A program made the position numbers and the translations under genes. The notes under the pieces are model-generated. The model made no database searches. It was not told the origin of the DNA and saw only the letters and a list, made by a program, of their open reading frames with translations. From positions 1-61,842 of IMG/VR virus record IMGVR_UViG_3300009466_000202: a stretch of DNA of 61,842 nt. The stretch is one strand, 5' to 3'. Origin of the DNA: a virus (Duplodnaviria; Caudoviricetes). Shown piece by piece: positions 16,900-43,327 of this stretch (its first letter is position 1; the number at the start of each line of letters is the position of its first letter).

Positions 16900-16900
16900 C

Positions 16901-17917: not shown

Positions 17918-18232
17918 ATGGACCTTTCTGAATTAAAAAAAGAATCAGATCTCAGTTTTGATATCGCAAATGCAAAAAAGAATGCATTGGAAAGAGCAGA
18001 ATCTAGGAAATTGATTGTTTATAACTATTCAATTTTCTCGGCCGATCCTGAGACAATCAATTTAGTAAATGTACTAAAGCAACATTTTGATACATTCATA
18101 ATATTAGACAATAATTCTAATCCTTGTAAAATTGATAATCCTGATGAATTTTTGAACATATTAATACAAAGAAATCAAGAGGCATTAAACGAATATCATC
18201 GGTTATACGAAACACTTAAAAGGAAATCTTAA
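17918..18232 (+). CDS. Hypothetical protein
   Basis: 104-aa ORF, translationally coupled to the next gene. Confidence 0.6.
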   Translation: MDLSELKKESDLSFDIANAKKNALERAESRKLIVYNYSIFSADPETINLVNVLKQHFDTFIILDNNSNPCKIDNPDEFLNILIQRNQEALNEYHRLYETLKRKS

Positions 18233-18981
18233 TGTCTGCCGGAGTACTGATTTATTGTTTTGATACTGATAAAATCAAGTACCATCTTACTACTAATTTT
18301 TGTATCAAACAAATCAAACAACATCTAAGTCTACCGGTCACTGTTGTTACTAATCTTGCTACAAAGGATTACATACAGGGAGCAGATTCTTTTGAAATAA
18401 TCGAAAATAAAAAAGGTAATAAAAGATTTTATAAAGGAGAAATAATAGATTGGTTTAACCTCGAAAGATCAAATGCCTATGAATATTCTCCGTATGATAT
18501 CACAATACTTTTAGATTCTGATTATTTTGTTTACACAGACAATCTTCTACAATTATTAGATTCAAAATATGATTTTTTATTACATAATAAAGTCTTTGAT
18601 CTTACTGGAAGATCAACATTCGAATACAAAAATAAATCCCTTATAGATCTTGTCTGGGCAACTGTTACAATCTTTAAAAAAAATTCTAAAACTAAAAAAA
18701 TATTTGATTTGATAAAACACATACAAAATAACTATCAGTATTTTTGCAATTTATATCGTATCGATTTTAAAAATTATCGTAATGACTATGCTTTTGCTAT
18801 AGCATTACATCAATTAAACATCAAAGATTTTATTCCTATTAAGATGTCTATGTTACCTGCAGATGCCAATATCATGGAAATTGACTCATACAACATAAAA
18901 TTTAGATGGTTAAATTCTTTTGGAACATTACAAAAACAAGATGTTCATGTATTAAACAAGGAGATACCATTCAATGTCTAA
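18232..18981 (+). CDS. GT-A-fold glycosyltransferase-like protein
   Basis: SPYDITILLDSD (DxD) and YRNDYAFAIAL; paralogous to the next gene. Confidence 0.65.
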   Translation: MSAGVLIYCFDTDKIKYHLTTNFCIKQIKQHLSLPVTVVTNLATKDYIQGADSFEIIENKKGNKRFYKGEIIDWFNLERSNAYEYSPYDITILLDSDYFVYTDNLLQLLDSKYDFLLHNKVFDLTGRSTFEYKNKSLIDLVWATVTIFKKNSKTKKIFDLIKHIQNNYQYFCNLYRIDFKNYRNDYAFAIALHQLNIKDFIPIKMSMLPADANIMEIDSYNIKFRWLNSFGTLQKQDVHVLNKEIPFNV

Positions 18982-19780
18982 GGGTTTTCTTTGGTTCGCA
19001 CAAAATAATAGTGATACCGACTATACTGAAATTAGTATTGAATTGGCAAAGTCTATTAAAAAATACAATAGAAAATCTGAGATTTGTGTTATTACAGATT
19101 CTAAAACACAAATCAAAAGTTCTCATATTGACATAGTAAAAATATTAGAGAACGATGAAAGCAAGGAAGACAAATTAAAATTTTCAAACGAATACAAAGC
19201 ATTTTCATTAACGCCTTTCGTTCACACTGTAAAATTGGAAGCAGATATGTTATTTACAAGTTCAACAGATTGGTGGTGGAATCATTTATGTCAGCATGAT
19301 ATGGTATTTTCTATTAATTGTAAAAATTACAAAGATGAGACAATAAAACATACGCCATATAGAAAACTTTTCGTGCAGAATTTTTTGCCTAATATATACA
19401 ATGGACTATTTTATTTTCGTAAAAGTCAGACTTCTAAAAAGTTTTTTGACATTTGTAAAACCTTAAGTAAAAATTGGACGGAAGTCAAACAAACATTTTT
19501 AATCAATTGTCACGACGAATATCCCACCACTGATGTAATTTATGCTCTTGCTCTAAGGATAATGGATCCTAGCAATAAAATGTTGATAGATTATCCTTGG
19601 TTTAAATTTATACACGGTAAACCCGGAATCAATTATGCAGAAATGGCATCGGAACAATACAATTATCTATATCCTGTGAGGACCGATGATAGAATTTATT
19701 TGGGCGGACAACGTTTGAATAGAATTTGGCACTATTATGAAAAAAATACAAAGGAGATTTTAAATGCCAGGGTTTTTTGA
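18974..19780 (+). CDS. GT-A-fold glycosyltransferase-like protein
   Basis: TPFVHTVKLEAD (ExD), NIYNGLFYF and PTTDVIYALAL. Confidence 0.6.
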   Translation: MSKGFLWFAQNNSDTDYTEISIELAKSIKKYNRKSEICVITDSKTQIKSSHIDIVKILENDESKEDKLKFSNEYKAFSLTPFVHTVKLEADMLFTSSTDWWWNHLCQHDMVFSINCKNYKDETIKHTPYRKLFVQNFLPNIYNGLFYFRKSQTSKKFFDICKTLSKNWTEVKQTFLINCHDEYPTTDVIYALALRIMDPSNKMLIDYPWFKFIHGKPGINYAEMASEQYNYLYPVRTDDRIYLGGQRLNRIWHYYEKNTKEILNARVF

Positions 19781-20063
19781 AGCAAGAGATAATTTTAAAA
19801 CTAAAAATAAAAAACATTTTGTTACCATTGATGGAAAAACAGTGGAAGTATCTCTAGAACAAAAAATAGAAATTTTACAGTCGGGAGAAAGTGCATGGAA
19901 ATGGGAAAATAATGAAATTGTAAAAAAACCTCAGAAAAAACTAGGAAGATATTATACAGAGTTAACAAAAACAGATAAGGGTTATCATTTTATAGATTCG
20001 GATCCTTACTGGCCAAGCGAATTCAAAGAAGGAGGTTACACATGGCAACAACCTTCCGAGTAA
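19764..20063 (+). CDS. Hypothetical protein
   Basis: 99-aa ORF overlapping both neighbours in the operon. Confidence 0.55.
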   Translation: MPGFFEARDNFKTKNKKHFVTIDGKTVEVSLEQKIEILQSGESAWKWENNEIVKKPQKKLGRYYTELTKTDKGYHFIDSDPYWPSEFKEGGYTWQQPSE

Positions 20064-20935
20064 CCGATTTAGACTTTGTTTTTATCAGTTTCAGGGAACC
20101 CAATAAGGAGTACAATTATGCCGATCTGCTCAACAAAGTTCCTTGGGCCAAACGTGTGGACGGTGTCGTGGGATTCGACAACGCACATAAGGCCGCGGCC
20201 GAACTTTCCGAAACGGAGTTTTTTATCAGTATAGACGGTGATAACATATTAGATCCTAAATTTCTTTTAGAGACATTGGATTTTACAAAAACAGACCCAA
20301 CAGCAGTACATCGTTGGAGGGCACGTAATTCTGTCAATGGACTTGTATATGGCAACGGTGGTATAGTGGGATGGCCTAAAAAAACTTGTCTGCAGATGAA
20401 GACACACGAAAATGCCAACACAAAAGAAAACGAGATAGATTTTTGTTGGGGAGTGCCCCATGAGAATTTACATAATGTTTATTCAGAAACAGTTATAAAC
20501 AGTTCTCCGGATCAGGCGTTTGTGGCAGGATTCAGAGAAGGAGTCAAGATGAGTCTCGACAGAGGAGAAGTGATAAATCCTGCGGAATTCTTGGACAAGG
20601 TTCATAAACCCAATCTAAAAGTACTGACGACCTGGATGAGCGTGGGCTCCGATGTAGACAATGGTGATTATGCCATGTTAGGAGCAAGAATGGGGTGTTG
20701 GTATACCACAGTAAAAGGTATGGAACTCAAAAAGGTGAGAGACCTAGATTTTATAAGGGAGATTTATTTCAATAGAATCACGAATATTGAGGAAACTTTG
20801 CTTACTTACGGAAATTCTCTGAGACAGAGATTAGGCATACCGGTTGCCGATTTTGATGCGGATGAGAGTCGTTTTTTTAAATTCTGTCAACCACAATGGC
20901 GAAATAATGGAGTGCAAGACCGTGAACAAAAGTAA
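20042..20935 (+). CDS. GT-A-like glycosyltransferase
   Basis: LDFVFISFREPN, AHKAAAELSETEFFISIDGD (DxD) and AGFREGVKM. Confidence 0.65.
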   Translation: MATTFRVTDLDFVFISFREPNKEYNYADLLNKVPWAKRVDGVVGFDNAHKAAAELSETEFFISIDGDNILDPKFLLETLDFTKTDPTAVHRWRARNSVNGLVYGNGGIVGWPKKTCLQMKTHENANTKENEIDFCWGVPHENLHNVYSETVINSSPDQAFVAGFREGVKMSLDRGEVINPAEFLDKVHKPNLKVLTTWMSVGSDVDNGDYAMLGARMGCWYTTVKGMELKKVRDLDFIREIYFNRITNIEETLLTYGNSLRQRLGIPVADFDADESRFFKFCQPQWRNNGVQDREQK

Positions 20936-22289
20936 ATATAAATCTCAAGCGGAAGAAATTAAAAAAGAATTAGATTTCATATCGCCTTCCATGTGTTTGG
21001 CCAAATGGAATCAGGTATCCTTGCATCTACCAACAGGACTGACAAATTCTTGTTATCATCCTCCATTGCACGAGATAGATGCTTCGTTGTTGACAGATAA
21101 TCCGGCCGCGTTACACAACACAGAACAAAAGTTGGAACAGCGTCGGCAAATGATAAAAGGAGAAAGACCCACAGGGTGTTCCTATTGTTGGAAACTGGAA
21201 GATGCAGGAGAGATGTCGGACAGACATTATCGTTCTGGAGAACCCTGGGCATCGGAGGATTTAAAAAAAATCGCCGGCAATCCTTTTGATAAAAAACATG
21301 TGCCTCGTTACGTAGAGGTTAATTTTAATCATGCCTGCAACTTCAAATGCAGTTATTGTAGTCCTCAATTTTCTACAACTTGGGCACAGGAAATAGATAC
21401 CTATGGACACTACCCTACAGATCCACCACACAACTCATCCGAGCACTTCCAGGGTCGTAGACAACCTATACCCAACAGAGAATCAAATCCATACGTGGAA
21501 GCATTCTGGCGATGGTGGCCCGATCTGTATCCGCATTTAAAACACTTCCGTATGACGGGCGGAGAACCCATGATGGATAAAAATACCTATAGAGTATTTG
21601 ATTATATCATAAAAAATCCCAAAAAGGATCTACATCTCAATGTTACTTCCAATATGTGTCCTCCCGAAGACAAATTAAAGAACAAATATTTTGATCAAGT
21701 CAAAAGAATGTGCCTCGAGGAAAAAATAGAGCATTTTATGCAATTTGCATCAATAGATGCACATGGTAAAAGAGCAGAATACATACGTCACGGATTAAAT
21801 TATAATCGTTTCATGGACAATGTACATGAATTTTTACATCGTGTTCCTGTGCGTAATTCCATAACCTTCATTATCACGTACAATAATCTATCAGTGACTT
21901 CCTTGGAGCCGTTGTTAAAAGATATACAAAAATTGAGATCGGAACATTCTAAAGATTATCAGCGAGTGTGGTTTGACATACCACTATTGCGTCAACCAGA
22001 ATGGCAACAGATCACACTGTTACCCGAAGCATATCAGCAGATTCATCTCGAGAACATGGAATGGATGCAGGCAAATTCTGGCGAGGACAACTACAGTCAA
22101 TTCAAGGACTTCGAAGTTCAAAAAATGCAACGCAATTTAGCATATTGGCAAAAAAATTACGCTGACGATAAAACGCAAAAAAAGAACTTTTACGCATTTT
22201 TTAACGAACACGATCGCAGACGCAGAACAAACTTTTTAAACACATTTCCAGAAATGGACGAGTTTTGGCAGGAGTGTAAAAATCTATGA
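20922..22289 (+). CDS. Radical SAM enzyme 1 with N-terminal SPASM/Twitch-like domain
   Basis: CNFKCSYC, GGEP and N-terminal CLAKW..SCYHPP..CSYCW; start refined to GTG 20922. Confidence 0.9.
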   Translation: MNKSKYKSQAEEIKKELDFISPSMCLAKWNQVSLHLPTGLTNSCYHPPLHEIDASLLTDNPAALHNTEQKLEQRRQMIKGERPTGCSYCWKLEDAGEMSDRHYRSGEPWASEDLKKIAGNPFDKKHVPRYVEVNFNHACNFKCSYCSPQFSTTWAQEIDTYGHYPTDPPHNSSEHFQGRRQPIPNRESNPYVEAFWRWWPDLYPHLKHFRMTGGEPMMDKNTYRVFDYIIKNPKKDLHLNVTSNMCPPEDKLKNKYFDQVKRMCLEEKIEHFMQFASIDAHGKRAEYIRHGLNYNRFMDNVHEFLHRVPVRNSITFIITYNNLSVTSLEPLLKDIQKLRSEHSKDYQRVWFDIPLLRQPEWQQITLLPEAYQQIHLENMEWMQANSGEDNYSQFKDFEVQKMQRNLAYWQKNYADDKTQKKNFYAFFNEHDRRRRTNFLNTFPEMDEFWQECKNL

Positions 22290-22900
22290 AAACAATAGGT
22301 TATTTTGGAGATAGTTTCTGTGCCGGAAGAGAATCGGAGAGCTGGTGTGTACTTTTATCAAAAAAATTAAATGCTAATATAGTACATTGGGGAGAGCCGG
22401 GTAGAAGTGTATGGACCTCTATGATAAAATTTAATAGATTAAACCAACAAGGTCGTTTACCAGATATTTGTATATTCTGTTGGAGCGAACCTTATAGATT
22501 ATATCACCCTTCTCTTATTCTAAGTGCAAATACACAACCGTTGCCAGAAGTGGATCCTAGAGTGTACAAAGCATTAGACGATTATTGGAAATACCTACAT
22601 TCTTATGAAAAAGACGAACTTGTTTATGAATATTCTATAAAATGGTTCGACCAAAATATATTGTCAAACATAGATAAAAAAATTATTCAAATGTGGAGTT
22701 TTAAACCTTTCGAAACTGCAAATAAGAATATTGATATCCATTTAACAACAGGAACATTTATTAATGAAAGTATGTTTGCTTTTTCAAAAAAAGACGGAGT
22801 TGAACCAGGAGGTTGGGGACCTGGCACAATTAATCATATGACAATAGAACAAAATAAACAATGGGCAGAGAAAGTATATGAAAGATATAAATTATCGTAG
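22286..22900 (+). CDS. SGNH/GDSL-like hydrolase or acyltransferase
   Basis: GYFGDSF block I and C-terminal INHM. Confidence 0.6.
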   Translation: MKTIGYFGDSFCAGRESESWCVLLSKKLNANIVHWGEPGRSVWTSMIKFNRLNQQGRLPDICIFCWSEPYRLYHPSLILSANTQPLPEVDPRVYKALDDYWKYLHSYEKDELVYEYSIKWFDQNILSNIDKKIIQMWSFKPFETANKNIDIHLTTGTFINESMFAFSKKDGVEPGGWGPGTINHMTIEQNKQWAEKVYERYKLS

Positions 22901-24224
22901 AAAAATATTAGATTCATTATCTCCTTCGTTTTGTGGAGCAAAATGGTACAACGCCACTATATGGTTAGGATCTGGGATGACTACAAGTTGTCACCATCCA
23001 CCAGCACACAAAGTTGATCTTGCTAAAGTAACGCAGAACCCAAAACTGCTACACAACACTCCGCAAAAGAAGCAGGATCGTGCCAAGATGATTGCGGGCG
23101 AAAGACCTGCAGGTTGTGAGTATTGTTGGAAGATAGAAGATATGGGCAGAGATGCTGTGAGCGATCGTGTCTATAAGAGTCGAATTTACAAAACAGAAGA
23201 TTTACACACTGCTAAAAACACCCCTATTACAGATGATGTAGATTTAAAGACACTAGAAATTGCGTTTGACAGGACCTGCAACTTCGCTTGTTCGTATTGC
23301 AATCCTGCATTCTCAACCACGTGGGTGAGGGATATCAAACAGAAGGGTCCATACCAGAATTTGATATCGGATGGTAGAAACCATTTCACTCACCCACACG
23401 ATGGCGCACAGTTATACAAACAGGACGAGACCAATCCCTATGTGGAAGCATTTTTTAAATGGTGGGATTCTGATCTACACAGAACATTAGAGGAATTACG
23501 AATAACGGGCGGAGAGCCAATGATGTCTCCACATCTATGGAGATTGCTGGATTGGTTTGAAACCGAAAAACACAGAGTGAATCCCAATATGAGATTTGCT
23601 ATTAATTCTAATCTTGTACCTAAACGAGATTTGTTTTCTAAATTTATTGAGAAATGTAAAAATGTTCCTAATTTACACATATACACTTCTAATGAAGCCA
23701 CGTTTGCCCAGTCGGATTATATTAGAGATGGTATGAATTTTTCAGAATGGTACATGAACTTTGCTAATATTATTAATCAATTGAAGCCTGCAGGGGTTCA
23801 TAATATGTGTACTATAAATGCATTGTGTCTCGAATCACTGCCCGAGTTCTTGGACAAAATTGTTGAAAATAAAATTAGTGCCAAAAGAGTATATGGTGTC
23901 GATGTAAATTTTACTTTAAATATTTTGAGATTTCCTAGTTTTCAATCTCCGTTGGTGTTACCAGACACACTAAGAACTGAATTTAAAAACAATCTTAATG
24001 ATTGGTTATCTAGACAGATAGATTATCTGGAACCCATGGAGGTAGCACATACGCAAAGATTGATAGATTATCTCGATATAGTAAAAACACCGCATTCTGA
24101 ATCGTTTGATTTACCAAGACTGAGATCAGATTTCAAAAATTTTTATAAACAATATAATGAGAGACGGGGTAAAAATTTAATCAAAACGTTTCCAAAAATA
24201 GGAGAGTGGTATAATGGCTTATGA
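22878..24224 (+). CDS. Radical SAM enzyme 2 with N-terminal SPASM/Twitch-like domain
   Basis: CNFACSYC, GGEP and CGAKW..SCHHPP..CEYCW. Confidence 0.9.
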   Translation: MKDINYRRKILDSLSPSFCGAKWYNATIWLGSGMTTSCHHPPAHKVDLAKVTQNPKLLHNTPQKKQDRAKMIAGERPAGCEYCWKIEDMGRDAVSDRVYKSRIYKTEDLHTAKNTPITDDVDLKTLEIAFDRTCNFACSYCNPAFSTTWVRDIKQKGPYQNLISDGRNHFTHPHDGAQLYKQDETNPYVEAFFKWWDSDLHRTLEELRITGGEPMMSPHLWRLLDWFETEKHRVNPNMRFAINSNLVPKRDLFSKFIEKCKNVPNLHIYTSNEATFAQSDYIRDGMNFSEWYMNFANIINQLKPAGVHNMCTINALCLESLPEFLDKIVENKISAKRVYGVDVNFTLNILRFPSFQSPLVLPDTLRTEFKNNLNDWLSRQIDYLEPMEVAHTQRLIDYLDIVKTPHSESFDLPRLRSDFKNFYKQYNERRGKNLIKTFPKIGEWYNGL

Positions 24225-27945: not shown

Positions 27946-28732
27946 AAAAATACTTTCAGGTGGATGTTCGTTTACATTTGGTAATGAATTATCAGACGAC
28001 GATGGAAAAACCCCTTCAAAAAACTCTTGGGCAAGTTTAATGGCTAAACAAAATGATTGCGAACATATTTGCCTTGCAAAAGGAGGCATAGGAAATTCGG
28101 GTATTGCAAGAAAAATATTTCAATATATTTCTAACAATGATATGAATAATACGTCGGTATTAGTAATGTGGACTTTTTGTTCGAGATATGACTGGGCAAT
28201 GCCTCGTCATAGAAGTTTAGAAGATACAAGATGGGCAACTATAACTCCATGGGATACTACTATCAATCAAAAAGAGGTGTACGAAAAATTAAAAGATAAT
28301 AAAATTGTATTGGACGATTGGAAAAAAAGATTAAAAATTTTTGAAGAGAACAATGTAATGCCTTTTGCTGATGCTTTATACAAGTATGCCGCAAATAGAT
28401 ATCACGAGATCTATCTTAGTTGGAAGAGTATAATTTGGCTACAAAATATTTTAGAAAAGAAAAATATATCATATATGTTCACTCTAGCAGATAATACTCT
28501 TTTTTATGACGAGTTTAAACTAGTAAACGATAAAGACGAATTACTAACTTCATTATATAATGAAATTGATTTTTCAAAATGGTTTAGTTTTGGAGAAAGA
28601 TTAATGGGATTTAACCAATGGGCGTCGCTAAATGATTATGAATATGCTACTACCCACCCATTAGATAAAGCACATCAAGATGCTGTGAAATTAATGCAAG
28701 ATAAATTCAAACAAATAATCAAAGGAGAATAA
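27938..28732 (+). CDS. SGNH-like hydrolase or acyltransferase
   Basis: SGGCSFTFG block I, GIGNSGI block II and C-terminal THPLDKAH. Confidence 0.6.
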   Translation: MNKKILSGGCSFTFGNELSDDDGKTPSKNSWASLMAKQNDCEHICLAKGGIGNSGIARKIFQYISNNDMNNTSVLVMWTFCSRYDWAMPRHRSLEDTRWATITPWDTTINQKEVYEKLKDNKIVLDDWKKRLKIFEENNVMPFADALYKYAANRYHEIYLSWKSIIWLQNILEKKNISYMFTLADNTLFYDEFKLVNDKDELLTSLYNEIDFSKWFSFGERLMGFNQWASLNDYEYATTHPLDKAHQDAVKLMQDKFKQIIKGE

Positions 28733-28733
28733 C

Positions 28734-28838
28734 ATGATAAAATGGATAAAATCTCTAATTACAAAAATCAAGCAGGAATTAGCCTATAGAAAAAGATTGA
28801 GAGATTTAAAAAAGAAAGATCCTTTCATCTACAAGTAG
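28734..28838 (+). CDS. Small basic peptide (34 aa; not in ORF track)
   Basis: MIKWIKSLITKIKQELAYRKRLRDLKKKDPFIYK; AAAGGAG RBS; fills the gap exactly. Confidence 0.7.
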   Translation: MIKWIKSLITKIKQELAYRKRLRDLKKKDPFIYK

Positions 28839-28839
28839 A

Positions 28840-29493
28840 ATGAAGAAAGTAAACAACTGGTACCTACCTGATTATGACAAACACTATGAGGAGTGGATGA
28901 ATGCCAATGGTGAAAAAACCTATCAGAGGCCACAGAGAGAGTTTGCTCTGAACAAAGTTAAAAAGTTTAGGAGAGCCATAGACATTGGAGGCAACATAGG
29001 ATTTTGGAGTCACGATTTTTGTCAAAGATTCGAAGATGTACAGATATTCGAACCGGACAGTTCTAATTTGGAATGCCTGCGAGCAAACATAGATTCCTTT
29101 ACTAACTTTACCATACACGAGGTAGGATTGGGCAAAGAAAAGATAACGAAGAAATTTTACACTTCTCCAACGACATCCGGAGGACACAGTTTCTATAGAG
29201 ATCAGATATTTGAGGAAGTTGTGGGACAGACCGAATGCGATATACACGTATTAGATGATTACAATTTTACTGATGTGGATCTCATCAAGATAGACACACA
29301 GGGCAGTGAATATGACATATTACAAGGAGCAAAGAACACATTGATCGACAACGATCCTATACTCAATGTTGAGATCGAACACAAGAACGAACAACAGAGA
29401 GAACGCGGTCGATTAATCATCAGTTTCTTGAACGGGCTAGGTTACAAAGAGCGAGGACGTTCTAGGAAGAAAGAAGTTGTATTCAGCAAATGA
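28840..29493 (+). CDS. FkbM-family SAM-dependent methyltransferase
   Basis: AIDIGGNIG, FEP and DLIKIDTQGSEYDILQGA. Confidence 0.85.
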   Translation: MKKVNNWYLPDYDKHYEEWMNANGEKTYQRPQREFALNKVKKFRRAIDIGGNIGFWSHDFCQRFEDVQIFEPDSSNLECLRANIDSFTNFTIHEVGLGKEKITKKFYTSPTTSGGHSFYRDQIFEEVVGQTECDIHVLDDYNFTDVDLIKIDTQGSEYDILQGAKNTLIDNDPILNVEIEHKNEQQRERGRLIISFLNGLGYKERGRSRKKEVVFSK

Positions 29494-30977
29494 GAATATT
29501 AGGGATAAACTGTCTAAATCATGACGCCGCAATGGCCGTGGTGGATGGCTCTGAGATATTGTGGGCCGCACACTCCGAACGTTATTCCAAGGTCAAGAAT
29601 GATCATTATCTCAATCATGATATTGTTAGAGAGGCCTATAGATATGGTCCGTTCGACAAGGTTGTGTACTACGAGAGGCCGTTCTCCAAGAAGATGCGAC
29701 AGATCCGGGCAGGACAATGGTCAGAGGTGTTCCAAACAAAGAACCTACCCTCACAACACCTACGACAGTTCGGCATCAAGATAGATCAATATGTGGATCA
29801 TCACGAGTCACACGCCGCTGGATCGTTCTTCACATCACCGTTCACGGATGCCATAGTGCTGTGCGTGGATGCCATAGGCGAGTGGGACACAATGACTGTA
29901 TGGACTGGAAGGGGTCGACAATTACACAAACAAGACTCAATGCAATATCCGCACTCTGTGGGATTGTTGTATTCGGCTTTCACCCAACGTGTGGGGCTCA
30001 AACCCTGTGAGGAAGAATACATCCTTATGGGAATGTCAGCATATGGAGAACACCGATATCGAGATGCTATCTATCACGATCTCATAGATCATAGGACTTT
30101 CAAACTGAAACGCAATCTACATCGGGGACTGGGAGATTGGATGCCGGGTGCTGATCCCATGGATCTCGCCGCTTCCATACAGAAGGTCACGGAAGAGATA
30201 CTGTTGGGTATGTGGAGGCACAGTGCCAGATTCATACCACAGGGACAGCGAGCGGTCAGTCCTTTTGGAGACAAACGAAATCTATGCTATTCTGGTGGAG
30301 TGTCCCTCAATTGTGTGGCCAATGCCGTGCTGATGAATCAAGGAGTATTTGAGGACTGTTGGATAATGCCCAATCCGGGAGATGCCGGAAGCAGTTTAGG
30401 CTGTATAGCGGCCTCGGAGAAAAGACACCTTAATTGGAAGAATCCCTTCCTGGGACACAACATCGATGGTGAATATCCCATAGACACGATCATCAAAGAA
30501 CTGACAGAAAACAAGATGGTGGGAGTGGCCAACGGCAGGGCGGAATTTGGTCCCAGAGCACTTGGTAATAGATCTCTGCTGGCAGATCCAAGAGGACCAG
30601 AAATCAAAGATTTGGTAAATCAAATTAAACGCAGACAGGCATTTAGACCGTTTGCACCAGCCATTCTAGAAGAGGATGTAAACGACTATTTTGAGCTACC
30701 TAAAGGGGTTATAAACACCCCTTATATGCAACATACAGCCCTTTGTTTGCGTGGTAATGAGTTTCCGGGCATCTTACACTGCGACGGCACATCACGTGTA
30801 CAAACCGTTAATAAGCAGGATAATCCAGGGTTCTACGAGCTGTTAAAACAGTGGAAAAAACGCACAGGCTGTCCTATGCTTCTAAATACCAGTCTCAACA
30901 TAAAGGGTGAGCCCATAGTGAACGACAAAATGGATGCAAAAAGATTCGAAACCAAGTATAATGTAAGGGTAGTATGA
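29490..30977 (+). CDS. Carbamoyltransferase (NodU/CmcH family)
   Basis: ILGINCLNHDAA, HHESHAA, PGDAGSSLG, EFGPRALGNRS, RPFAP and LLNTSLN. Confidence 0.92.
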   Translation: MRILGINCLNHDAAMAVVDGSEILWAAHSERYSKVKNDHYLNHDIVREAYRYGPFDKVVYYERPFSKKMRQIRAGQWSEVFQTKNLPSQHLRQFGIKIDQYVDHHESHAAGSFFTSPFTDAIVLCVDAIGEWDTMTVWTGRGRQLHKQDSMQYPHSVGLLYSAFTQRVGLKPCEEEYILMGMSAYGEHRYRDAIYHDLIDHRTFKLKRNLHRGLGDWMPGADPMDLAASIQKVTEEILLGMWRHSARFIPQGQRAVSPFGDKRNLCYSGGVSLNCVANAVLMNQGVFEDCWIMPNPGDAGSSLGCIAASEKRHLNWKNPFLGHNIDGEYPIDTIIKELTENKMVGVANGRAEFGPRALGNRSLLADPRGPEIKDLVNQIKRRQAFRPFAPAILEEDVNDYFELPKGVINTPYMQHTALCLRGNEFPGILHCDGTSRVQTVNKQDNPGFYELLKQWKKRTGCPMLLNTSLNIKGEPIVNDKMDAKRFETKYNVRVV

Positions 30978-31306
30978 AGATAGAAGGAAATTTCAATGTG
31001 GGTGGAGAGATCGTCAAGCAGGATGAACGCTATGTTGTCCAGGACAACCGATTGCTCAAGAACTTAATTTTAAGCAGTACTCGATTGAATCCTGGTAAGG
31101 AGACCACGGGACATCGCCACGAGGGACAGGAAGAAGTGTATATGTTCGTGGAAGGCACAGGAGAGATGCTGTTGGACGAAAAACGCTTCGCAGTCAAACA
31201 GGGAGACATAGTTCTGATAGAGGACGGAGTATTTCATCGAGTGTACAACACTAGCGACAAGGAACTGTATTTCGTCTGTGTGTTTGACGGCCAAAGGAGA
31301 CACTAA
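30974..31306 (+). CDS. Cupin-domain protein
   Basis: GHRHEGQEEVYMF...GDIVLIEDGVFHRV. Confidence 0.85.
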   Translation: MKIEGNFNVGGEIVKQDERYVVQDNRLLKNLILSSTRLNPGKETTGHRHEGQEEVYMFVEGTGEMLLDEKRFAVKQGDIVLIEDGVFHRVYNTSDKELYFVCVFDGQRRH

Positions 31307-32259
31307 TGAGAATATTGGTCACAGGCGGAGAAGGATTTATTGGATCGTGGATAGTGGAAAAACTATGCGAACAGAAGCATCAGGTTTACACACTAGATAA
31401 CCACGACACCTATGGACTTATAGATTCCAAACAACTACAGCATCTACACAATTGGCGCCAAAGAAATTGGGCAGAAAAGGTTTATAAATCCAGAGGCTCG
31501 GTCACAGACAGAGACAAAGTTCTGGCGGTATTCCAACATCGCCCAGAAGTGGTGATACATCTTGCCTCGTATCCTCGAGCAAAGATTGTACATCAAAATC
31601 CTTTATTGGGTACAGATAATATCATAGGTGGTACAATAAATCTTTTAGAACACTGTCAAAAATTTGGTACAAAAAGATTTGTGTTTGTTTCTTCGTCGAT
31701 GATATATGGAAACTTCCAAGACGGTGTCAAGGAAGGCGATGACACAAAACCATTGAACATATACGGCGAGGCCAAACTGTCCGCAGAAAGATTCTGCAAA
31801 CACTATCAGAAGTTCCACGGAGTGGAATATGTGATAGCAAGGCCTTCGGGTGTTTATGGCCCCGGCGACATACCAGACCGAGTGGTGACAACATTCTATG
31901 ATCAAGCGATCAAAAATGAAAAGATAACAGTTCACAAGGGCATAGGTGCCGTGGACTTCACCTATGTAGAGGATGCCGCAGACGGAATCATACGATGTGC
32001 CACTATACCAGGAGCGGCAAATCTAAGTTTTAATATATCATCTGGTGAAGGTACAAAATTAAAAAGTTTAGCAGAACACATAGTATCAATAACAGATTCA
32101 AAATCTGAAATCATAGAAGAAGGACGCAATCAGATGTATCCTGCCAGAGGAGCATTGGATATCTCAAGAGCACGTGATTTATTAGGATATAATCCACAAA
32201 CATCTTTACTCAAAGGATTAAACAATTATCATGAGTGGTACCAAGCAAATCAAATTTAA
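31306..32259 (+). CDS. NAD-dependent NDP-sugar epimerase/dehydratase
   Basis: ILVTGGEGFIGS, YGEAK (YxxxK), VYGPG and DFTYVED. Confidence 0.88.
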   Translation: MRILVTGGEGFIGSWIVEKLCEQKHQVYTLDNHDTYGLIDSKQLQHLHNWRQRNWAEKVYKSRGSVTDRDKVLAVFQHRPEVVIHLASYPRAKIVHQNPLLGTDNIIGGTINLLEHCQKFGTKRFVFVSSSMIYGNFQDGVKEGDDTKPLNIYGEAKLSAERFCKHYQKFHGVEYVIARPSGVYGPGDIPDRVVTTFYDQAIKNEKITVHKGIGAVDFTYVEDAADGIIRCATIPGAANLSFNISSGEGTKLKSLAEHIVSITDSKSEIIEEGRNQMYPARGALDISRARDLLGYNPQTSLLKGLNNYHEWYQANQI

Positions 32260-33310
32260 CGGAATAGATAGATTGTACGATGCCTACAGTTGGCGTCTTA
32301 CTCGTCGTGCGAAAAAAGTCTGGCGTACGGGACAGGTGCTACAGGGACCTGAACTCAATGAGCTGGAAGAACGCTTCAAGAAAAAATATAGAAGAAAATA
32401 TGCCGTGGGTGTAGGATCGGCCACTGATGGATTATATTTTGCCCTTGCCGGACACGGCATCAATAAAGGGTCTACTGTGATCTGTCCTGTGGTGAGTTAT
32501 GTTGCCACAGCGGGAGCAATACGGAGAACAGGTGCCAAATTGAACTTCTGTGATACTGATAATAGAGGAAACTTAGGCAGTTTAAATTTACAACAAAAAC
32601 CACAAGCGGTAGTATATGTCAATCTCTATGGCAACTGTGCTGACTATGACAGGATAAGAAAATACTGTGATGAGAACAAAGCGGTATTGATAGAAGATGC
32701 CGCTCAGTCCATGGGTGCCTATTATAAAAAAACCTGGACCAAGAGTTTGCAGTCCGGACAGATGGGGGACACATCTGTGTTCAGTTTTGACCCTACGAAA
32801 AACTTACCTTGTTTTGGTTCGGGAGGAATGATACTGACAGATTCATTAGCAGTCTATGAAAAGGCAATAGCATTAAGAAGGCATGGATTACAAGGTACAT
32901 CTGTTGTATACGGATATAATAGTTTACCATCAGAAGATCATTGTTCTCAACTCAACTTTTTGTTTGATCGTTTTACCTCTCTACAAAAAATGAGAGAGAA
33001 CGTATTTAAATGGTATAAAGAATATCTACCCATAGGCACGATAATTCAGGCAGATAAAAATACAGTGAGTAGTCATCATAAATTAGTGATCATCACAGGA
33101 AGTAGAGACAGATTAAAAGATTTTCTCACCAAACATGGTATTGAAACACGAGTTCATTATTCTAAGACACTAGATAATGGGTCATTGAATCATTACCCAA
33201 ATGCAGACTATCTATGTGCTAACTGTCTTAGTCTTCCAATATATCCTTTTCTTGAGAAAGTAGAAGTAAAATATATTTGTGATAAGATAAGAGAGTTCAA
33301 TGGCATTTGA
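32231..33310 (+). CDS. DegT/DnrJ/EryC1/StrS PLP-dependent sugar aminotransferase
   Basis: VGSATDGL, IEDAAQS, FSFDPTKNL (catalytic Lys) and LSLPIYP. Confidence 0.9.
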   Translation: MSGTKQIKFNGIDRLYDAYSWRLTRRAKKVWRTGQVLQGPELNELEERFKKKYRRKYAVGVGSATDGLYFALAGHGINKGSTVICPVVSYVATAGAIRRTGAKLNFCDTDNRGNLGSLNLQQKPQAVVYVNLYGNCADYDRIRKYCDENKAVLIEDAAQSMGAYYKKTWTKSLQSGQMGDTSVFSFDPTKNLPCFGSGGMILTDSLAVYEKAIALRRHGLQGTSVVYGYNSLPSEDHCSQLNFLFDRFTSLQKMRENVFKWYKEYLPIGTIIQADKNTVSSHHKLVIITGSRDRLKDFLTKHGIETRVHYSKTLDNGSLNHYPNADYLCANCLSLPIYPFLEKVEVKYICDKIREFNGI

Positions 33311-34604
33311 TTGTATATTTGTAGATTTTCAAGAAAATAATCCCACTAGAGAAAGAGTATTAGAACAATTTCCTTATGCTCGAAAAACTCCTTTTATATC
33401 AAGTTATTTTGATATTATTAAAAGTTATATTAATGAAATAAGAACAGAATATTTTTGGTTTGTAAGTGATCTTGTAAATTTGCAACACTTTGATTTTGAC
33501 TACATACCAGAACAATACGAAGATAAGCAAATACACGTCTGGAATGGGTCTTACCAAACAGAGGGCGATGTCATGCTTATACCTACACAAGAATTTCGTA
33601 AGCAAATAAATTCAATTAAATTTTTAAGAGATTACAAGGATATAAATTATCACGTAGATTCTACCATAACTTTCAATGCTTGGCCTTCGCATCCTTTTTC
33701 ATTTGATAATTTAATTGAACAAATACGTTCGCAGAAATCAAGATATGTAAATTATTATCTACGTGATATTAAAAATATAACTCCTAGTTTTTGGGAAGAT
33801 CAAAAACTCTACATTCATGATTGTAATAAATTTAATATTTTAGTACCCAAATTTTCAATTAAAGAAGAATTATACGAATACACACCTCGATACAGTTTAA
33901 ACAATATTAGTGAACCCATTTACTTTGATGTATGTTATATACACAATGGAGAACCACAAGCATTAGATAATTTAAAATTATTGAAAAAACATCTTAAAGG
34001 AAGACCAAATAAATTACACGTGATAGAAGGAGTCAAGGGCCGTAAAGAGGCCTATCAGACAGCCGCACGAGCCAGCACCACAGAATACTTCTATGCTGTG
34101 TTCGCTAAACTCAAAGTAGACAAGAATTTTGCTTTTAACTTTGTGCCGGATATTTTAAAATCTCCAAGACATTATATATTTGATTGTTACAATCCTGTGA
34201 TCGATTACACCTATGGTCATCAAGCAGTTATACTGTATAATAAAAAGTTAGTGTTAGAAAACGATGGTACAGGATTAGATTTCACACTGGCACAGAAGCA
34301 CGATCACATAACTTTGTTGAGTGCAGAGACAACTTTTTATACAGATCCTCGTGTGTGTTATAGGACAGCATTTAGAGAAATAGTCAAATTAATATATAAT
34401 AAAAAAATAAAACCCACGGTCGAAAATGACTTCATACTGAAAAAATGGTTGGACCCAGATATCGGTCCCGGTGCCTCATATGTAAGAGATGCCGGCATTG
34501 ATGCAAAAGAATTTGTGCATTCGCATGGTCACGATTTCGATTCAATGTTTAAAAGTTATGAATGGGAATTTGTTGATAAAAAATTTGATCAACGTTATAG
34601 TTAA
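33300..34604 (+). CDS. Two-domain glycosyltransferase-like protein; C-terminal half is a paralogue of 20042-20935
   Basis: FDVCYIHNGEP, GVKGRKEAYQTAARASTTEYF and TAFREIVKL align by eye with the 20042 product, but the DxD position reads VFAK. Confidence 0.55.
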   Translation: MAFDCIFVDFQENNPTRERVLEQFPYARKTPFISSYFDIIKSYINEIRTEYFWFVSDLVNLQHFDFDYIPEQYEDKQIHVWNGSYQTEGDVMLIPTQEFRKQINSIKFLRDYKDINYHVDSTITFNAWPSHPFSFDNLIEQIRSQKSRYVNYYLRDIKNITPSFWEDQKLYIHDCNKFNILVPKFSIKEELYEYTPRYSLNNISEPIYFDVCYIHNGEPQALDNLKLLKKHLKGRPNKLHVIEGVKGRKEAYQTAARASTTEYFYAVFAKLKVDKNFAFNFVPDILKSPRHYIFDCYNPVIDYTYGHQAVILYNKKLVLENDGTGLDFTLAQKHDHITLLSAETTFYTDPRVCYRTAFREIVKLIYNKKIKPTVENDFILKKWLDPDIGPGASYVRDAGIDAKEFVHSHGHDFDSMFKSYEWEFVDKKFDQRYS

Positions 34605-42908: not shown

Positions 42909-43291
42909 TATTTTTTCTTTTTAGTATCTAACCTAACTATGTTATCGTCTTTAAGATGTCCTACAGATTCTCTTATGATGTCGTCATGATTGAATTCTGC
43001 CCAGTACAATTCAAATGCCTGTCCATCTTCCAGTCCTTCAAAACTATGATACAATCCGGGTTTTACTCGAGTAAAATCACCTGGCTCCAATATAGTCTCG
43101 TCAACTAACTCATAATCTTTTTGCCATACTTTGATCTTCATTTTTCCCGAAATCACATAAAAGCCGTTCCATTTGTATGCGTGATAGTGTTTACTACACA
43201 CCCCGCCCTTTACATAATCTATCTTGTGAAACTCAAGTACACCATTGGCGTGTATCAGTTCTGTTTGTCCCCAAATTTTTCCTGCCTTCAT
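42908..43291 (-). CDS. Cupin-domain protein
   Basis: CSKHYHAYKWNGFYVISG...VKPGLYHSF. Confidence 0.75.
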   Translation of the reverse strand: MKAGKIWGQTELIHANGVLEFHKIDYVKGGVCSKHYHAYKWNGFYVISGKMKIKVWQKDYELVDETILEPGDFTRVKPGLYHSFEGLEDGQAFELYWAEFNHDDIIRESVGHLKDDNIVRLDTKKKK

Positions 43292-43327
43292 GCTCTTATA
43301 CTAACATCCTTTTTCTAGATTGTAAAG

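Follow-up and report, generated by a model that had tools for sequence, protein, structure and literature searches.

The window, a 61,842-nt stretch of viral DNA, corresponds to about 17% of a jumbo myovirus. Located within it are 18 plus-strand genes, designated g01 to g18, that extend from position 17918 (start of g01) to position 34604 (stop of g18). These bounds are exactly those of the first-pass annotation, which had counted 19 genes where 18 were found (non-overlapping plus-strand ORFs of at least 99 aa). The genes overlap by 1-32 nt at 16 of the 17 junctions, and the sole gap, of 107 nt, lies just 5' of the FkbM gene g13. We regard the block as a module with the layout of an operon, carried by a jumbo myovirus from freshwater. 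It is not a chance assembly, as it was found again in 79 distinct loci of related viruses, in 56 of which all eight core genes lie on one strand. The genes of the module, and the structural pair that accompanies it, are as follows.

15298..17869, + strand: two structural baseplate/fibre-like genes, Ser/Thr-rich (PHROG virion structural matches)
17918..18232, + strand: g01, 104 aa, conserved across the near clade; RsoM2USA has a weak homologue
18232..18981, + strand: g02, GT8-like retaining GT-A glycosyltransferase, DxD D95/D97 (structure model)
18974..19780, + strand: g03, g02 paralogue (hhalign; phrog_1903)
19764..20063, + strand: g04, 99 aa (38/79 loci)
20042..20935, + strand: g05, GT-A N-terminal domain (residues ~4-152) and helical C-domain (structure model)
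20907..22289, + strand: g06, predicted N-terminal-twitch radical SAM enzyme (NF033640, 330 bits; 71/79 loci)
22286..22900, + strand: g07, small protein, SGNH-like by motif only, accessory (N-terminal G-D-S motif; 10/79 loci)
22878..24224, + strand: g08, predicted N-terminal-twitch radical SAM enzyme (NF033640, 288 bits; 73/79 loci)
24214..25515, + strand: g09, predicted N-terminal-twitch radical SAM enzyme (NF033640, 417.5 bits; 78/79 loci)
25484..26797, + strand: g10, predicted N-terminal-twitch radical SAM enzyme (NF033640, 314 bits; 73/79 loci)
26779..27945, + strand: g11, predicted N-terminal-twitch radical SAM enzyme (NF033640, 364.7 bits; 74/79 loci)
27938..28732, + strand: g12, DUF6071-like / SGNH-like protein (motif and ESM Atlas; 52/79 loci)
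28840..29493, + strand: g13, FkbM-family methyltransferase (PF05050, 63.3 bits; TIGR01444, 76.5 bits)
29490..30977, + strand: g14, NodU/CmcH-family carbamoyltransferase (Carbam_trans_N/C; 55/79 loci)
30974..31306, + strand: g15, small generic Cupin_2 protein, accessory (PF07883, 62.8 bits)
31306..32259, + strand: g16, extended SDR NDP-sugar epimerase/dehydratase, accessory (PF01370, 150 bits)
32231..33310, + strand: g17, DegT/DnrJ/EryC1 sugar aminotransferase, accessory (PF01041, 220 bits)
33300..34604, + strand: g18, two-part protein with a C-terminal half (204-434) paralogous to g05 (BLASTP, hhalign)

The glycosyltransferase (GT)-like genes, the five radical SAM (rSAM) genes, g12 and the carbamoyltransferase gene were found in 52-78 of the 79 loci. 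The GTs, the five rSAMs, the SGNH-like gene and the carbamoyltransferase form the conserved core; the amino-sugar genes are accessory, as is FkbM. The emphasis previously placed on the dehydratase, aminotransferase, cupin and FkbM genes was not borne out, as g16, g17, g15 and g13 occurred in 30, 22, 4 and 0 of the 79 loci, respectively. The small ORF g01, present in 41 loci, matched RsoM2USA ORF354 (tblastn, E 1.5e-8); Pfam and PHROG searches returned no family for either g01 or g04.

None of the four GT-like proteins (g02, g03, g05 and g18) had a Pfam match above threshold, and g05 fell below the GT2 threshold (14.3 vs 23.3 bits). All four had been described as GT-A-like, a claim that another fold would have overturned; the GT-A fold was upheld by structure models of g02 and g05 and by the paralogy of g03 and g18. 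The g02 model (AF2, pLDDT 95.7) retrieved retaining GT-A enzymes in Foldseek (335 matches at E<=1e-3), among them glycogenin (3.9e-6), UGGT, GlyE, alpha-1,3-GalT and LARGE1. D95 and D97 were invariant across 36 sequences, and g02 and g03 were each found in 62 of the 79 loci. The two proteins aligned at 98.7% in hhalign (E 2e-16), with g03 carrying E89-x-D91 at the DxD position. The N-domain of g05 (AF2, pLDDT 93.1) matched GT-A folds with VIA Z scores of 10.2 for B4GALNT1, the highest value, 9.4 for Leptospira GT 6p61, 8.4-8.5 for WrtF, SunS/ThuS and PBCV-1 A64R, and 8.1 for Mimivirus R699. Among the structural neighbours of g02 and g05 are thus enzymes that glycosylate proteins or peptides (glycogenin, UGGT, GlyE and SunS/ThuS), and those of g05 include capsid or fibril GTs of viruses (A64R and R699). 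The GT-A fold is, however, also common to nucleotidyltransferases, and g05 matched IspD/IspDF at Z 8-9.2. The residues D65-G66-D67 were invariant in g05, which was found in 70 of the 79 loci. The viral family to which it belongs has no name and is very abundant, with 4987 of 8000 scored candidates matching at E<=1e-3. In its C-terminal half, g18 was related to g05 by BLASTP (2e-9) and hhalign (99.9%, E 6.5e-32), yet it lacks the DxD motif, with F-A-K aligned to the D-G-D of g05; g18 was found in 33 loci.

Some GT8 enzymes are LPS core transferases, and this, together with the Leptospira match of g05, would fit enzymes that alter the glycans of the host envelope (LPS, capsule or S-layer glycan) during infection, which might for instance prevent superinfection or keep progeny from adhering to debris. 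Large "LPS gene clusters" are found in T4-like cyanophages, as are carbamoyltransferases without a known role, according to the available text of PMC3037559. Membrane helices were absent from all 18 proteins (Kyte-Doolittle mean >1.8 over 19 residues; highest value 1.74, in g11), and none of the 18 matched flippase, polymerase or phosphoglycosyl transferase families. The absence of any membrane-spanning protein, flippase, polymerase, ligase or priming phosphoglycosyl transferase among the 18 genes, and the tie of the module to tail/baseplate genes and not to early or host-takeover genes, make envelope remodelling distinctly improbable.

The five rSAM enzymes proposed previously were confirmed, as g06 and g08-g11 all scored above the NF033640 cut-off (288-417 bits vs 170). 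Their sequences place them in a single uncharacterised family in which the twitch domain is predicted to be N-terminal; in g09, Pfam assigned SPASM to residues 33-96 and Radical_SAM to residues 141-298. All five retain the CX3CX2C motif and four N-terminal Cys. For g06, an ATG start at 20907 was preferred over a TTG at 20844. We know of no characterised member of NF033640, and the substrates of SPASM/twitch enzymes are often peptides and not sugars, which counts against a role in sugar tailoring. A weak alignment (E 0.023) linked the N-terminal region to the twitch domain of BtrN, an enzyme acting on sugars; BlsE was matched at E 0.035, and weak secondary matches were to the peptide maturases StsB, PapB, WgkB, SkfB and CteB. 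Relatives carry 7-12 N-terminal-twitch rSAMs per record, and the extra copies adjoin unrelated genes (among them chaperonins, the DNA polymerase and Fe-S assembly), which counts against the glycosylation reading.

The BtrN and BlsE matches raise the alternative that the product is a soluble small molecule formed during infection, for example one that is aminoglycoside-, pseudo-oligosaccharide- or nucleoside-like, which could inhibit competitors or act as a signal. A twitch rSAM of the BtrN type, DegT, a TobZ/NodU-type carbamoyltransferase, an SDR, GTs and a methyltransferase are the enzymes typically used to make aminoglycoside and nucleoside antibiotics, and all 18 proteins are soluble. A cyanophage trio of DegT, rSAM and amidinotransferase genes is read as "antibiotic synthesis genes" in the accessible part of PMC12801897. 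We consider this alternative quite unlikely, as no scaffold-forming enzyme (e.g. 2-deoxy-scyllo-inosose synthase) or exporter was seen among the 18 genes, the amino-sugar genes are merely accessory, and the conserved linkage to structural genes would be left unexplained.

Two SGNH-like genes had been reported, and their support is limited to motifs in g07 and g12 and an ESM Atlas lead for g12. Invariant residues were G8, D9, S10, N183 and H184 in g07 (7 sequences), which had no Pfam or PDB match, and G9, S11, G50, N53 and H240 in g12 (36 sequences). The ESM Atlas neighbours of g12 were viral DUF6071 clusters (TM 0.72-0.74), in some of which 10-11% of the members carry Lipase_GDSL. The FkbM assignment of g13 was sustained by its PF05050 match; the gene was found in this window only. 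The NodU-type assignment of g14 was likewise confirmed (Carbam_trans_N 158 bits, Carbam_trans_C 181 bits); the protein was 44% identical to RsoM2USA ORF199 and 31% identical to a protein encoded beside N-twitch rSAMs in bacteria.

The previously proposed amino/deoxy NDP-sugar set was correct as to families, with Cupin_2 (g15), Epimerase (g16) and DegT aminotransferase (g17) all confirmed, but the set is accessory, the cupin is generic and the SDR misses the dehydratase cut-offs. Specifically, g16 scored below the TIGR01181 cut-off (125.9 vs 365 bits) and reached no 4,6-dehydratase equivalog cut-off, and g17 scored below that of the PseC model (148 vs 423 bits). A sugar ketoisomerase/epimerase was not recognisable in g15, a metal-type generic Cupin_2 protein whose best PDB matches were generic cupins. 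NTP_transferase was absent from 5 of 5 records, one of them a relative with 98% completeness, while 14 of 14 control genomes were positive. Host NDP-sugars are the probable starting material, as the phage yielded no sugar-1-phosphate nucleotidyltransferase.

The cluster had been placed downstream of virion genes, and indeed PHROG families labelled "virion structural protein" were matched by the upstream ORFs. For the 15298-16899 ORF, annotations of relatives read baseplate wedge/tail pin or virion structural protein. The two genes at 15298..17869 have S+T contents of 20% and 27% and were found in 51 and 57 of the 79 loci, and the module sits behind the same two genes in both clades. Replication and nucleotide-metabolism genes lie on the opposite strand, the module within the structural gene block. 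Contigs from two metatranscriptome libraries of one study matched 27/30 and 28/30 bins of the stretch, a weak hint of possible transcription, since contigs of RNA libraries can derive from DNA.

A version of the module, split in two and unannotated, was found beside virion genes in Ralstonia phage RsoM2USA, a jumbo phage that has been cultured. Its GT/rSAM part runs in the order ORF355, g01-like, g02-like, g03-like, ORF351, g05-like, rSAM and g05/g18-like, and ORF355 shares an N-terminal domain with the 15298 ORF. This part adjoins ORF356, ORF359 (sheath) and ORF361 (2541 aa), all three of which were found in virions by mass spectrometry; the available text of the same paper reports no glycosylation and does not mention the module genes (PMC8504454). 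The other part, ORF199-203, combines an rSAM, a g12-like protein and the carbamoyltransferase apart from the GTs; ORF202 is 49% identical to g08, and an rSAM is flanked by three g12 paralogues. This kernel also occurs in bacteria, where its chromosomal neighbours include GDSL, methyltransferase, GT2 and deacetylase genes. Predominant in these neighbourhoods were PhyH dioxygenases (5 of 35 ORFs) and B12-rSAMs (3 of 35), with one GT2 only; the neighbourhoods look like general tailoring clusters, which counts against the glycosylation reading.

The GT-free kernel of RsoM2USA suggests that the kernel might act directly on side chains of virion proteins (radical cross-links, epimerisation or hydroxyl carbamoylation) and not on sugars, with the GTs serving a separate glycosylation step or another substrate. 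The peptide-maturase matches of the rSAMs agree with this, as does the company of PhyH dioxygenases, B12-rSAMs and methyltransferases in bacteria, which resembles peptide-tailoring clusters. An Asp/Asn beta-hydroxylase-like gene also lies within the structural block (13222-13899). Neither a RiPP recognition element nor a precursor-like Cys-rich peptide was seen, however, and the nine Ser/Thr-rich upstream structural ORFs hold 0-2 Cys each, contrary to thioether links. Known NodU/CmcH enzymes carbamoylate hydroxyls of sugars or antibiotics, and g12 and g14 share a locus with GT genes in 52-55 of the 79 loci. Side-chain modification is therefore unlikely.

Phages are known to glycosylate their DNA and to modify bases by rSAM-dependent routes, and the module might instead hypermodify phage DNA, yielding a glycosylated, further tailored base that protects against restriction. 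The window also encodes GTP cyclohydrolase I and a QueE-like rSAM (7-deazaguanine-type), and a ThyA-family gene was found in 3 of 5 related records. That match (E 1e-105) scores as an ordinary thymidylate synthase, the module yielded no gene for a DNA-binding protein, a kinase or a hydroxymethylase, and it lies away from the replication and nucleotide-metabolism genes of the other strand; we consider DNA modification very improbable.

The product attributed to the module is most likely an elaborate, as yet uncharacterised glycan, and literature searches, in keeping with the first-pass annotation, found no characterised phage pathway with this enzyme set. Our tentative preference is for cytoplasmic glycosylation of the phage's own tail/baseplate proteins from host NDP-sugars. 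Virion proteins are favoured as the target because the 18 proteins lack membrane helices, because the upstream structural ORFs are Ser+Thr-rich (17-27%, vs 7-14% in the enzymes), because gene order is kept in RsoM2USA beside virion proteins confirmed by mass spectrometry, and because protein and capsid glycosyltransferases are among the structural neighbours. Against this, fibre proteins are commonly Ser/Thr-rich regardless of modification, adjacency to structural genes could be mere inherited synteny in one phage lineage, and we know of no glycan observed on virions of this lineage.

We infer the substrates, the order of steps and the acceptor of such a pathway as follows. Glycosylation would take place in the cytoplasm of the infected cell, on tail, baseplate or fibre proteins encoded directly upstream, and would start from host NDP-sugars. 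In this phage, part of the pool may be converted to an amino/deoxy sugar by the SDR g16 and the aminotransferase g17, perhaps with the cupin g15. Sugars would be transferred to the acceptor by g02 and g03, the GT8-like pair, and by the GT-A protein g05, for which g18, the DxD-less paralogue, may be a non-catalytic partner. The kernel, comprising five long-diverged N-terminal-twitch rSAMs, g12 (and g07) and g14, would then tailor the sugars. The rSAMs would act by radical H-abstraction leading to oxidation, epimerisation, dehydration or C-C coupling, and O-acyl handling by the SGNH-like proteins and O-carbamoylation by g14 would also be expected. O-methylation by the FkbM protein g13 would be an addition in this phage only.

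The window corresponds to a complete IMG/VR virus record (61,842 bases, linear) that CheckV scored as 17% complete, implying a genome of roughly 350 kb. Its family-B DNA polymerase shared 42-46% identity with those of the jumbo myoviruses Sinorhizobium phage Phosso, Agrobacterium phage Atu_ph07 and Klebsiella phage RaK2. Located between positions 17918 and 34604 is a set of 18 non-overlapping ORFs of at least 99 aa (g01 to g18, in order), every one on the + strand. The same-strand gene block described in the first-pass annotation was recovered, with a gene count of 18 in place of 19. Sixteen of the 17 junctions between these ORFs overlap, by 1-32 nt, and the sole gap, of 107 nt, lies just before the FkbM gene (g13). 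The GC content was 0.27-0.32 in g01-g04 and 0.40-0.47 in g13-g15, with 0.37 for the window. Scans for promoters (80 vs 73.2 +/- 9.0) and terminators (14 vs 10.3 +/- 3.2) were at chance level, so the operon boundaries rest on gene spacing only. No match to the 16.7-kb block was obtained by megablast among 50,697 phage records, and Pfam and PHROGs gave nothing over threshold for g01-g05, g07, g12 and g18. The possibility that g01 or g04 is a RiPP precursor was dropped; the two proteins have 1 and 0 Cys, respectively, neither contains a repeat, and a recognition element was not seen.

The IMG/VR database was scanned with g09 and g05, yielding 79 distinct related loci, in which gene presence was scored by exclusive assignment of tblastn matches at a coverage of at least 50%; many of the absences are contig ends and not true losses. 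Genes for radical SAM (rSAM) enzymes were present in 78 (g09), 74 (g11), 73 (g08 and g10 each) and 71 (g06) of the 79 loci, and glycosyltransferase (GT)-like genes in 70 (g05), 62 (g02 and g03 each) and 33 (g18). The carbamoyltransferase gene g14 was found in 55 of the loci, g12 and g07, which encode SGNH-like proteins, in 52 and 10, g01 in 41 and g04 in 38. Two structural genes upstream of the block, both encoding Ser/Thr-rich baseplate/fibre-like proteins (15298-16899 and 16901-17869), accompanied the module in 51/79 and 57/79 loci. These counts indicated that the conserved unit consists of the structural genes, two GT8-like genes, the GT-A gene g05, the five rSAM genes, the SGNH-like gene and the carbamoyltransferase gene. 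The amino-sugar genes and the FkbM gene, on which the first-pass annotation had placed its emphasis, proved instead to be an accessory, variable tail found in 30/79 loci or fewer (g16 in 30, g17 in 22, g15 in 4 and g13 in 0). The comparison of cluster content and position across related genomes that it had proposed was thereby run on all 79 loci, and the core was conserved together with the structural genes. All eight core genes lay on one strand in 56 loci, 36 of which kept the core-gene order of the window; in the remaining 20, all from the more distant of the two clades into which the loci fall, the g10-like and g11-like genes were swapped or parted by inserts. Dozens of contigs from uncultured jumbo phages, freshwater and marine, share the conserved module. 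The FkbM gene (28733-29493 with the gap before it), which is missing from every related locus, sits behind the only gap, opens the stretch of raised GC and looks like a recent insertion.

The claim that four of the genes encode GT-A-like proteins stood, including under the structure prediction that had been named as its refuting check, since g02 and g05 were modelled as GT-A folds and g03 and g18 are paralogues of these proteins. Alignments were built from the related loci, and AF2 models were made of g02 and g05. The g02 model (pLDDT 95.7) had the alpha/beta/alpha fold of a retaining GT-A enzyme, and Foldseek returned 335 matches at E<=1e-3, with a probability of 1.00 to glycogenin, UGGT, GlyE, alpha-1,3-GalT and LARGE1. 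D95 and D97 of its DxD motif were invariant (n=36 sequences). The paralogue g03 (hhalign E 2e-16) was assigned to GT-A by profile homology; at the site aligned with the DxD motif, E89 was nearly invariant and D91 invariant. Neither g02 nor g03 matched a Pfam family at E<=0.01, the best being Glyco_transf_21 at 11.5 bits vs a cut-off of 21.7. The g05 model (pLDDT 93.1) comprised a GT-A N-domain (residues ~4-152) followed by a helical domain. The N-domain aligned by VIA with B4GALNT1 (Z 10.2, rmsd 3.0, 141 aligned) and, at Z 8-9.4, with many GT2-type enzymes; WrtF, SunS/ThuS, a Leptospira GT, PBCV-1 A64R, Mimivirus R699 and IspD-type nucleotidyltransferases all matched in this range. Its DxD motif, D65-G66-D67, was invariant (n=38 sequences), and its score against Pfam Glycos_transf_2 (14.3 bits) was under the gathering score of 23.3. 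The C-terminal half of g18 is a g05 paralogue (hhalign E 6.5e-32) in which the DxD motif is absent, F-A-K being aligned to D-G-D of g05. Searches of the PDB with single sequences (g02, g05 and g18) and with profiles (the g05 and g02 alignments) gave nothing meaningful. The g05 family comprised 4,987 matching clusters among 8,000 scored candidates; among the 120 matches listed, nearly all were unnamed and 2 carried PF13641. Many of these relatives (P0003-P0054) are ~530-540 aa long, roughly twice the length of g05, which suggests fused or duplicated domain forms comparable to the two-part g18.

A plausible membrane helix was absent from all 18 proteins (highest 19-residue hydropathy 1.74, in g11), and no match to flippase, polymerase or priming transferase families was found among them. 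A sugar-1-phosphate nucleotidyltransferase was found in 0/5 records, while the control matched in 14/14 genomes, so the host pool must supply the sugar donors. Ser and Thr together make up 17-27% of the upstream structural ORFs and 7-14% of the enzymes, and relatives of the ORF at 15298 carry the annotation baseplate wedge/tail pin or virion structural protein. The reading that we favour, tentatively, is a cytoplasmic pathway that attaches sugars to tail, baseplate or fibre proteins of the phage itself and afterwards tailors these sugars. Tailoring would proceed by radical chemistry, acyl handling and carbamoylation, with methylation and amino-sugar formation as extras in the window's phage. 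Set beside the same hydropathy and family searches, remodelling of the host envelope by these enzymes was judged quite improbable. DNA hypermodification by the module was rated lowest and very improbable. A ThyA-family match, which does not tell a synthase from a hydroxymethylase, was present in 3/5 records, and a Tet_JBP search gave no match, but its control likewise matched nowhere. Within the structural block, positions 13222-13899 (+ strand) encode an Asp/Asn beta-hydroxylase-like 2OG oxygenase (PF05118, 27.7 bits), which could be a virion-protein-modifying enzyme.

In the virion-glycosylation reading, radical chemistry would fall to g06 and g08-g11. All five belong to a single NCBIfam family, NF033640 (N_Twi_rSAM), scoring 330.3 (g06), 288.2 (g08), 417.5 (g09), 314.0 (g10) and 364.7 bits (g11) vs a cut-off of 170, with near full-length alignments (model positions 1-2 to 392-398). 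In this family the radical SAM core is preceded by an N-terminal Cys domain of SPASM/twitch type, and in g09-g11 Pfam SPASM was placed at residues 11-96, ahead of Radical_SAM. The CX3CX2C motif (C146, C150, C153) and four N-terminal Cys (C33, C52, C93, C96) were invariant in the five paralogues, the other four of which are merely 20-27% identical to g09. A PDB search with g09 alone gave nothing meaningful. A profile of all five gave weak matches to an uncharacterised rSAM enzyme (8vpo, 3e-6), viperin (5e-4), MoaA, CteB and SkfB, as well as to BlsE (E 0.035), and aligned the N-terminal Cys region with the twitch domain of BtrN (E 0.023). These profile matches do not decide between a sugar, a nucleotide and a peptide as the predicted substrate.

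Five long related records (55-98% complete) each contained 10-13 NF033640 matches, 7-12 of them over the cut-off, and 0/14 control genomes had one over it. The 98%-complete, 354-kb relative carries 11 copies over the cut-off, five in the cluster and the rest scattered. The 42 neighbour ORFs of seven scattered copies were heterogeneous, including GroEL/GroES, NifU-/IscA-type Fe-S assembly proteins and DNA polymerase; only four were sugar- or methyl-related (one each of cupin, Gly_transf_sug, DUF6492 and methyltransferase), and no common partner gene was found among the 42. The NifU-like, IscA-like and GroEL/GroES genes near scattered copies (loci L090-L095 of this relative) may mean that the phage brings its own Fe-S cluster assembly and folding aid for the many rSAM enzymes it encodes. 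Four distant N-twitch-like rSAM genes also lie within 6.7 kb in the cultured Vibrio phage K566 (161.5-168.3 kb), three on one strand and one opposite, and the ORFs around them had no similarity to g02, g03, g05, g12 or g18.

The family is rare in bacteria: 4/401 sampled genomes from the phylum of a Flavobacterium MAG, that MAG included, had a match over the cut-off, and the bacterial genes are likewise grouped, 2-4 together. A scan of genome contigs recovered near relatives of the cluster rSAM genes (38-72% identity) only on three short contigs (L087, L088 and L089; 2-7.6 kb, GTDB), which are binned into Flavobacterium, Polynucleobacter and Halobacteriovoraceae MAGs that have 4-8 NF033640 matches on small contigs. 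These three are probably pieces of phage genomes placed in the MAG bins by mistake, and carry no host information. The 35 neighbour ORFs at three bacterial chromosomal loci included five PhyH dioxygenases, three B12-binding rSAM enzymes, three methyltransferases and three GDSL lipases, together with one each of a carbamoyltransferase (31% identical to g14), a GT2, a polysaccharide deacetylase and a WelO5-like halogenase. A further reading, in which the module makes a soluble small molecule, leaves its link to the structural genes unexplained, and we consider it distinctly unlikely.

For the favoured pathway of virion-protein glycosylation, the remaining genes of the block supply candidate tailoring and sugar enzymes. 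The enzyme families first proposed for the block were confirmed by curated models for the five rSAM enzymes, FkbM, carbamoyltransferase, cupin, SDR and DegT, while two more specific labels, a dehydratase equivalog (g16) and a NodU equivalog (g14), were not reached, and for a third, a sugar-type cupin (g15), generic cupins alone were matched. The FkbM methyltransferase g13 scored 63.3 bits vs 22.7 for PF05050 and 76.5 vs 37.7 for TIGR01444. The carbamoyltransferase g14 has both domains of the NodU/CmcH family (Carbam_trans_N, 158 bits vs 24; Carbam_trans_C, 181.2 vs 27) and fell short of the NodU equivalog NF041651 (144.6 bits, cut-off 1000), and is therefore a family member and not a NodU orthologue. 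When g15 was compared for likeness to FdtA/QdtA/RmlC-type sugar cupins, only Cupin_2 and generic cupins were matched, and the 51 PDB matches at E<=0.01 were oxalate decarboxylase-like proteins, dioxygenases, phosphoglucose or mannose-6-P isomerases and uncharacterised cupins. An extended SDR of the Epimerase family (150 bits), g16 was under all 4,6-dehydratase equivalog cut-offs (TIGR01181, 125.9/365.1; TIGR01472, 32.7/415; TIGR02622, 72.3/278). The DegT/DnrJ/EryC1 aminotransferase g17 (PF01041, 220.1 bits vs 19.8) reached no equivalog model (PseC, 148 vs 423.5).

Two SGNH-like proteins had also been proposed. The SGNH motif consists of Ser in block I, Gly in block II, Asn in block III and His in block V. 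In g12, S11, G50, N53 and H240 were invariant, and in g07 G8-D9-S10 and N183-H184 were invariant among just 7 close sequences, the blocks being assigned by eye. The ESM Atlas neighbours of g12 were viral DUF6071 clusters (TM 0.72-0.74), in two of which 10-11% of members carry Lipase_GDSL. Profile searches of Pfam and the PDB gave no meaningful match for either protein, and hhalign related g07 to g12 with a probability of merely 10.5%. SGNH identity of g07 and g12 thus remains a lead, from the candidate motifs in both and the Atlas neighbours of g12.

Among the 50,697 phage records, a g05 homologue (41% identity) was found only in the cultured Ralstonia jumbo phage RsoM2USA. ORF355-348 of this phage match the first part of the module, with homologues of g01, g02, g03, g05, g06 and g05/g18 in window order adjoining structural genes, and an SDR (ORF358) is nearby.

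Counterparts of the window's genes in RsoM2USA ORF355-348
ORF355: N-terminal domain of the ORF at 15298 (tblastn 1.2e-11)
ORF354: g01-like (tblastn 1.5e-8)
ORF353: g02-like (hhalign 4.4e-36)
ORF352: g03-like (hhalign 2.3e-42)
ORF351: no counterpart found in the window
ORF350: g05-like (41% identity)
ORF349: g06-like rSAM (36% identity, E 3e-94)
ORF348: g05/g18-like (hhalign 1.7e-38)

A second block, ~90 kb off, holds a carbamoyltransferase (ORF199, 44% identity), a g08-like rSAM (ORF202, 49% identity) and three g12-like genes (ORF200, 201 and 203; hhalign 1e-11 to 5e-16). This block indicated that rSAM, g12-like and carbamoyltransferase genes form a recurring kernel, separable from the GTs. 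A kernel that modifies proteins directly is a reading to be weighed here, with this separate block on one side and the GT genes that share a locus with g12 and g14 on the other; we consider it unlikely, and the remaining probability falls to something outside the readings listed. RsoM2USA has two loci with two rSAM genes in these blocks, whereas the window has five in tandem, and DegT, FkbM and cupin genes, all three of which are in the window block, were not seen in those of RsoM2USA. ORF348-355 and ORF199-203 are all deposited as 'hypothetical protein'. LC-MS/MS detected ORF356, ORF359 (tail sheath) and ORF361 (2541 aa) in virions, and the available portion of that paper mentions "radical SAM" and "carbamoyl" 0 times and leaves the module genes undiscussed (PMC8504454). 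A reduced version of the module in a cultured phage makes the question open to experiment.

Giant eukaryotic viruses and a few mycobacteriophages are established cases of virus-encoded glycosylation. The PBCV-1, Mimivirus and mycobacteriophage systems employ virus-encoded soluble GT-A GTs and NDP-sugar tailoring enzymes. Like PBCV-1 (A64R), Mimivirus with its fibril glycan clusters and the mycobacteriophages with capsid/tail glycosylation, the virus of the window has its own soluble GT-A GTs and NDP-sugar tailoring enzymes, here linked to structural genes; g05 has A64R and Mimivirus R699 among its structural neighbours (Z 8.1-8.5). We know of no rSAM enzymes, carbamoyltransferase or SGNH-like proteins in those glycosylation systems, whereas the window has genes for all three. 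Its rSAM enzymes resemble the sugar-acting BtrN and BlsE in having a radical SAM core and one auxiliary Cys cluster domain, but the twitch domain is N-terminal in the window and C-terminal in BtrN/BlsE, and matches this weak fall far short of indicating orthology. With the NodU/CmcH/TobZ O-carbamoyltransferases, g14 shares both Pfam domains at strong scores, as a family member only. T4-like cyanophages carry clusters of LPS and sugar-pathway genes, along with carbamoyltransferases of the NodU type to which no role has been assigned; the part of the paper available places the clusters near hli03, phoH and tRNAs (PMC3037559). By that description they are, like the virus of the window, large aquatic myoviruses with sugar clusters and carbamoyltransferases, but the same part does not describe them as conserved tandem rSAM arrays beside tail genes, such as the window has.

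The literature searched, with supplements (which may hold gene lists) outside its scope, gave no description of the rSAM family or of such an enzyme combination in phages, in agreement with the initial statement that no phage pathway with this enzyme set had been characterised. What is new, within that scope, is a conserved array of N-terminal-twitch rSAM enzymes with GT-A transferases, SGNH-like proteins and a carbamoyltransferase beside tail genes, that is, a phage pathway coupling GTs to an rSAM array. The GT-A component falls in a nameless family that numbers thousands of sequence clusters from metagenomes. For NF033640 the literature searched gave no characterised member, yet this family reaches about ten copies per phage record. 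Solving the chemistry would assign function to a large rSAM family, could reveal new sugar or protein modifications, and would make clear how large phages benefit from devoting genome space to tailoring pathways. A bolder proposal, which we regard as doubtful, is that N-twitch rSAM enzymes, DUF6071/SGNH-like proteins and NodU-type carbamoyltransferases form an unrecognised system, common to aquatic jumbo phages and some bacteria, that would perform serial, distinct radical transformations on virion-protein glycans. If true, the virions would bear a class of glycan, tailored by radical chemistry and carbamoylated, for which no counterpart is known; it might act as a variable coat on the particle surface that governs adsorption or evasion.

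The runs that matched most strongly (word shares 0.93, 0.91 and 0.57) are labelled aquatic or freshwater metagenomes, and for these strong matches the habitat is 'aquatic/freshwater'. Contigs of two metatranscriptome libraries, from one study that also supplied the best-matching DNA runs, matched at >=99% in 27/30 and 28/30 bins. These contigs are a weak hint that the block is transcribed, as RNA libraries can contain DNA; uncovered bins carry no meaning.

Several other genes of the window were recorded. An ORF of 2392 aa that runs from base 1 (1-7179, + strand) has an FG-GAP repeat and a weak CBM5/12 match, and is comparable to the RsoM2USA virion protein ORF361, a likeness of size and position only, taken from the available portion of the RsoM2USA paper. 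Positions 11790-13235 (+ strand) encode a 481-aa protein with 25% Gly and long poly-Gly/Ser runs, for which no family match was obtained; its C-terminal part opens with C-F-L-A-G-T, which looks like the start of what we take to be a Hint/intein-type autoprocessing domain. Further nucleotide and sugar genes, forming a second set outside the 17918-34604 block, lie on the - strand at 42012-47959 and suggest a 7-deazaguanine-type pathway with further sugar chemistry.

Genes of the set at 42012-47959
42012-42908, - strand, QueE-like radical SAM
42908-43291, - strand, cupin
43328-43795, - strand, phosphoribosyltransferase
43770-44825, - strand, IMPDH/GMP-reductase-like
45077-45790, - strand, GTP cyclohydrolase I
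45790-46833, - strand, SDR epimerase/dehydratase
46790-47959, - strand, GT-B Glycos_transf_1
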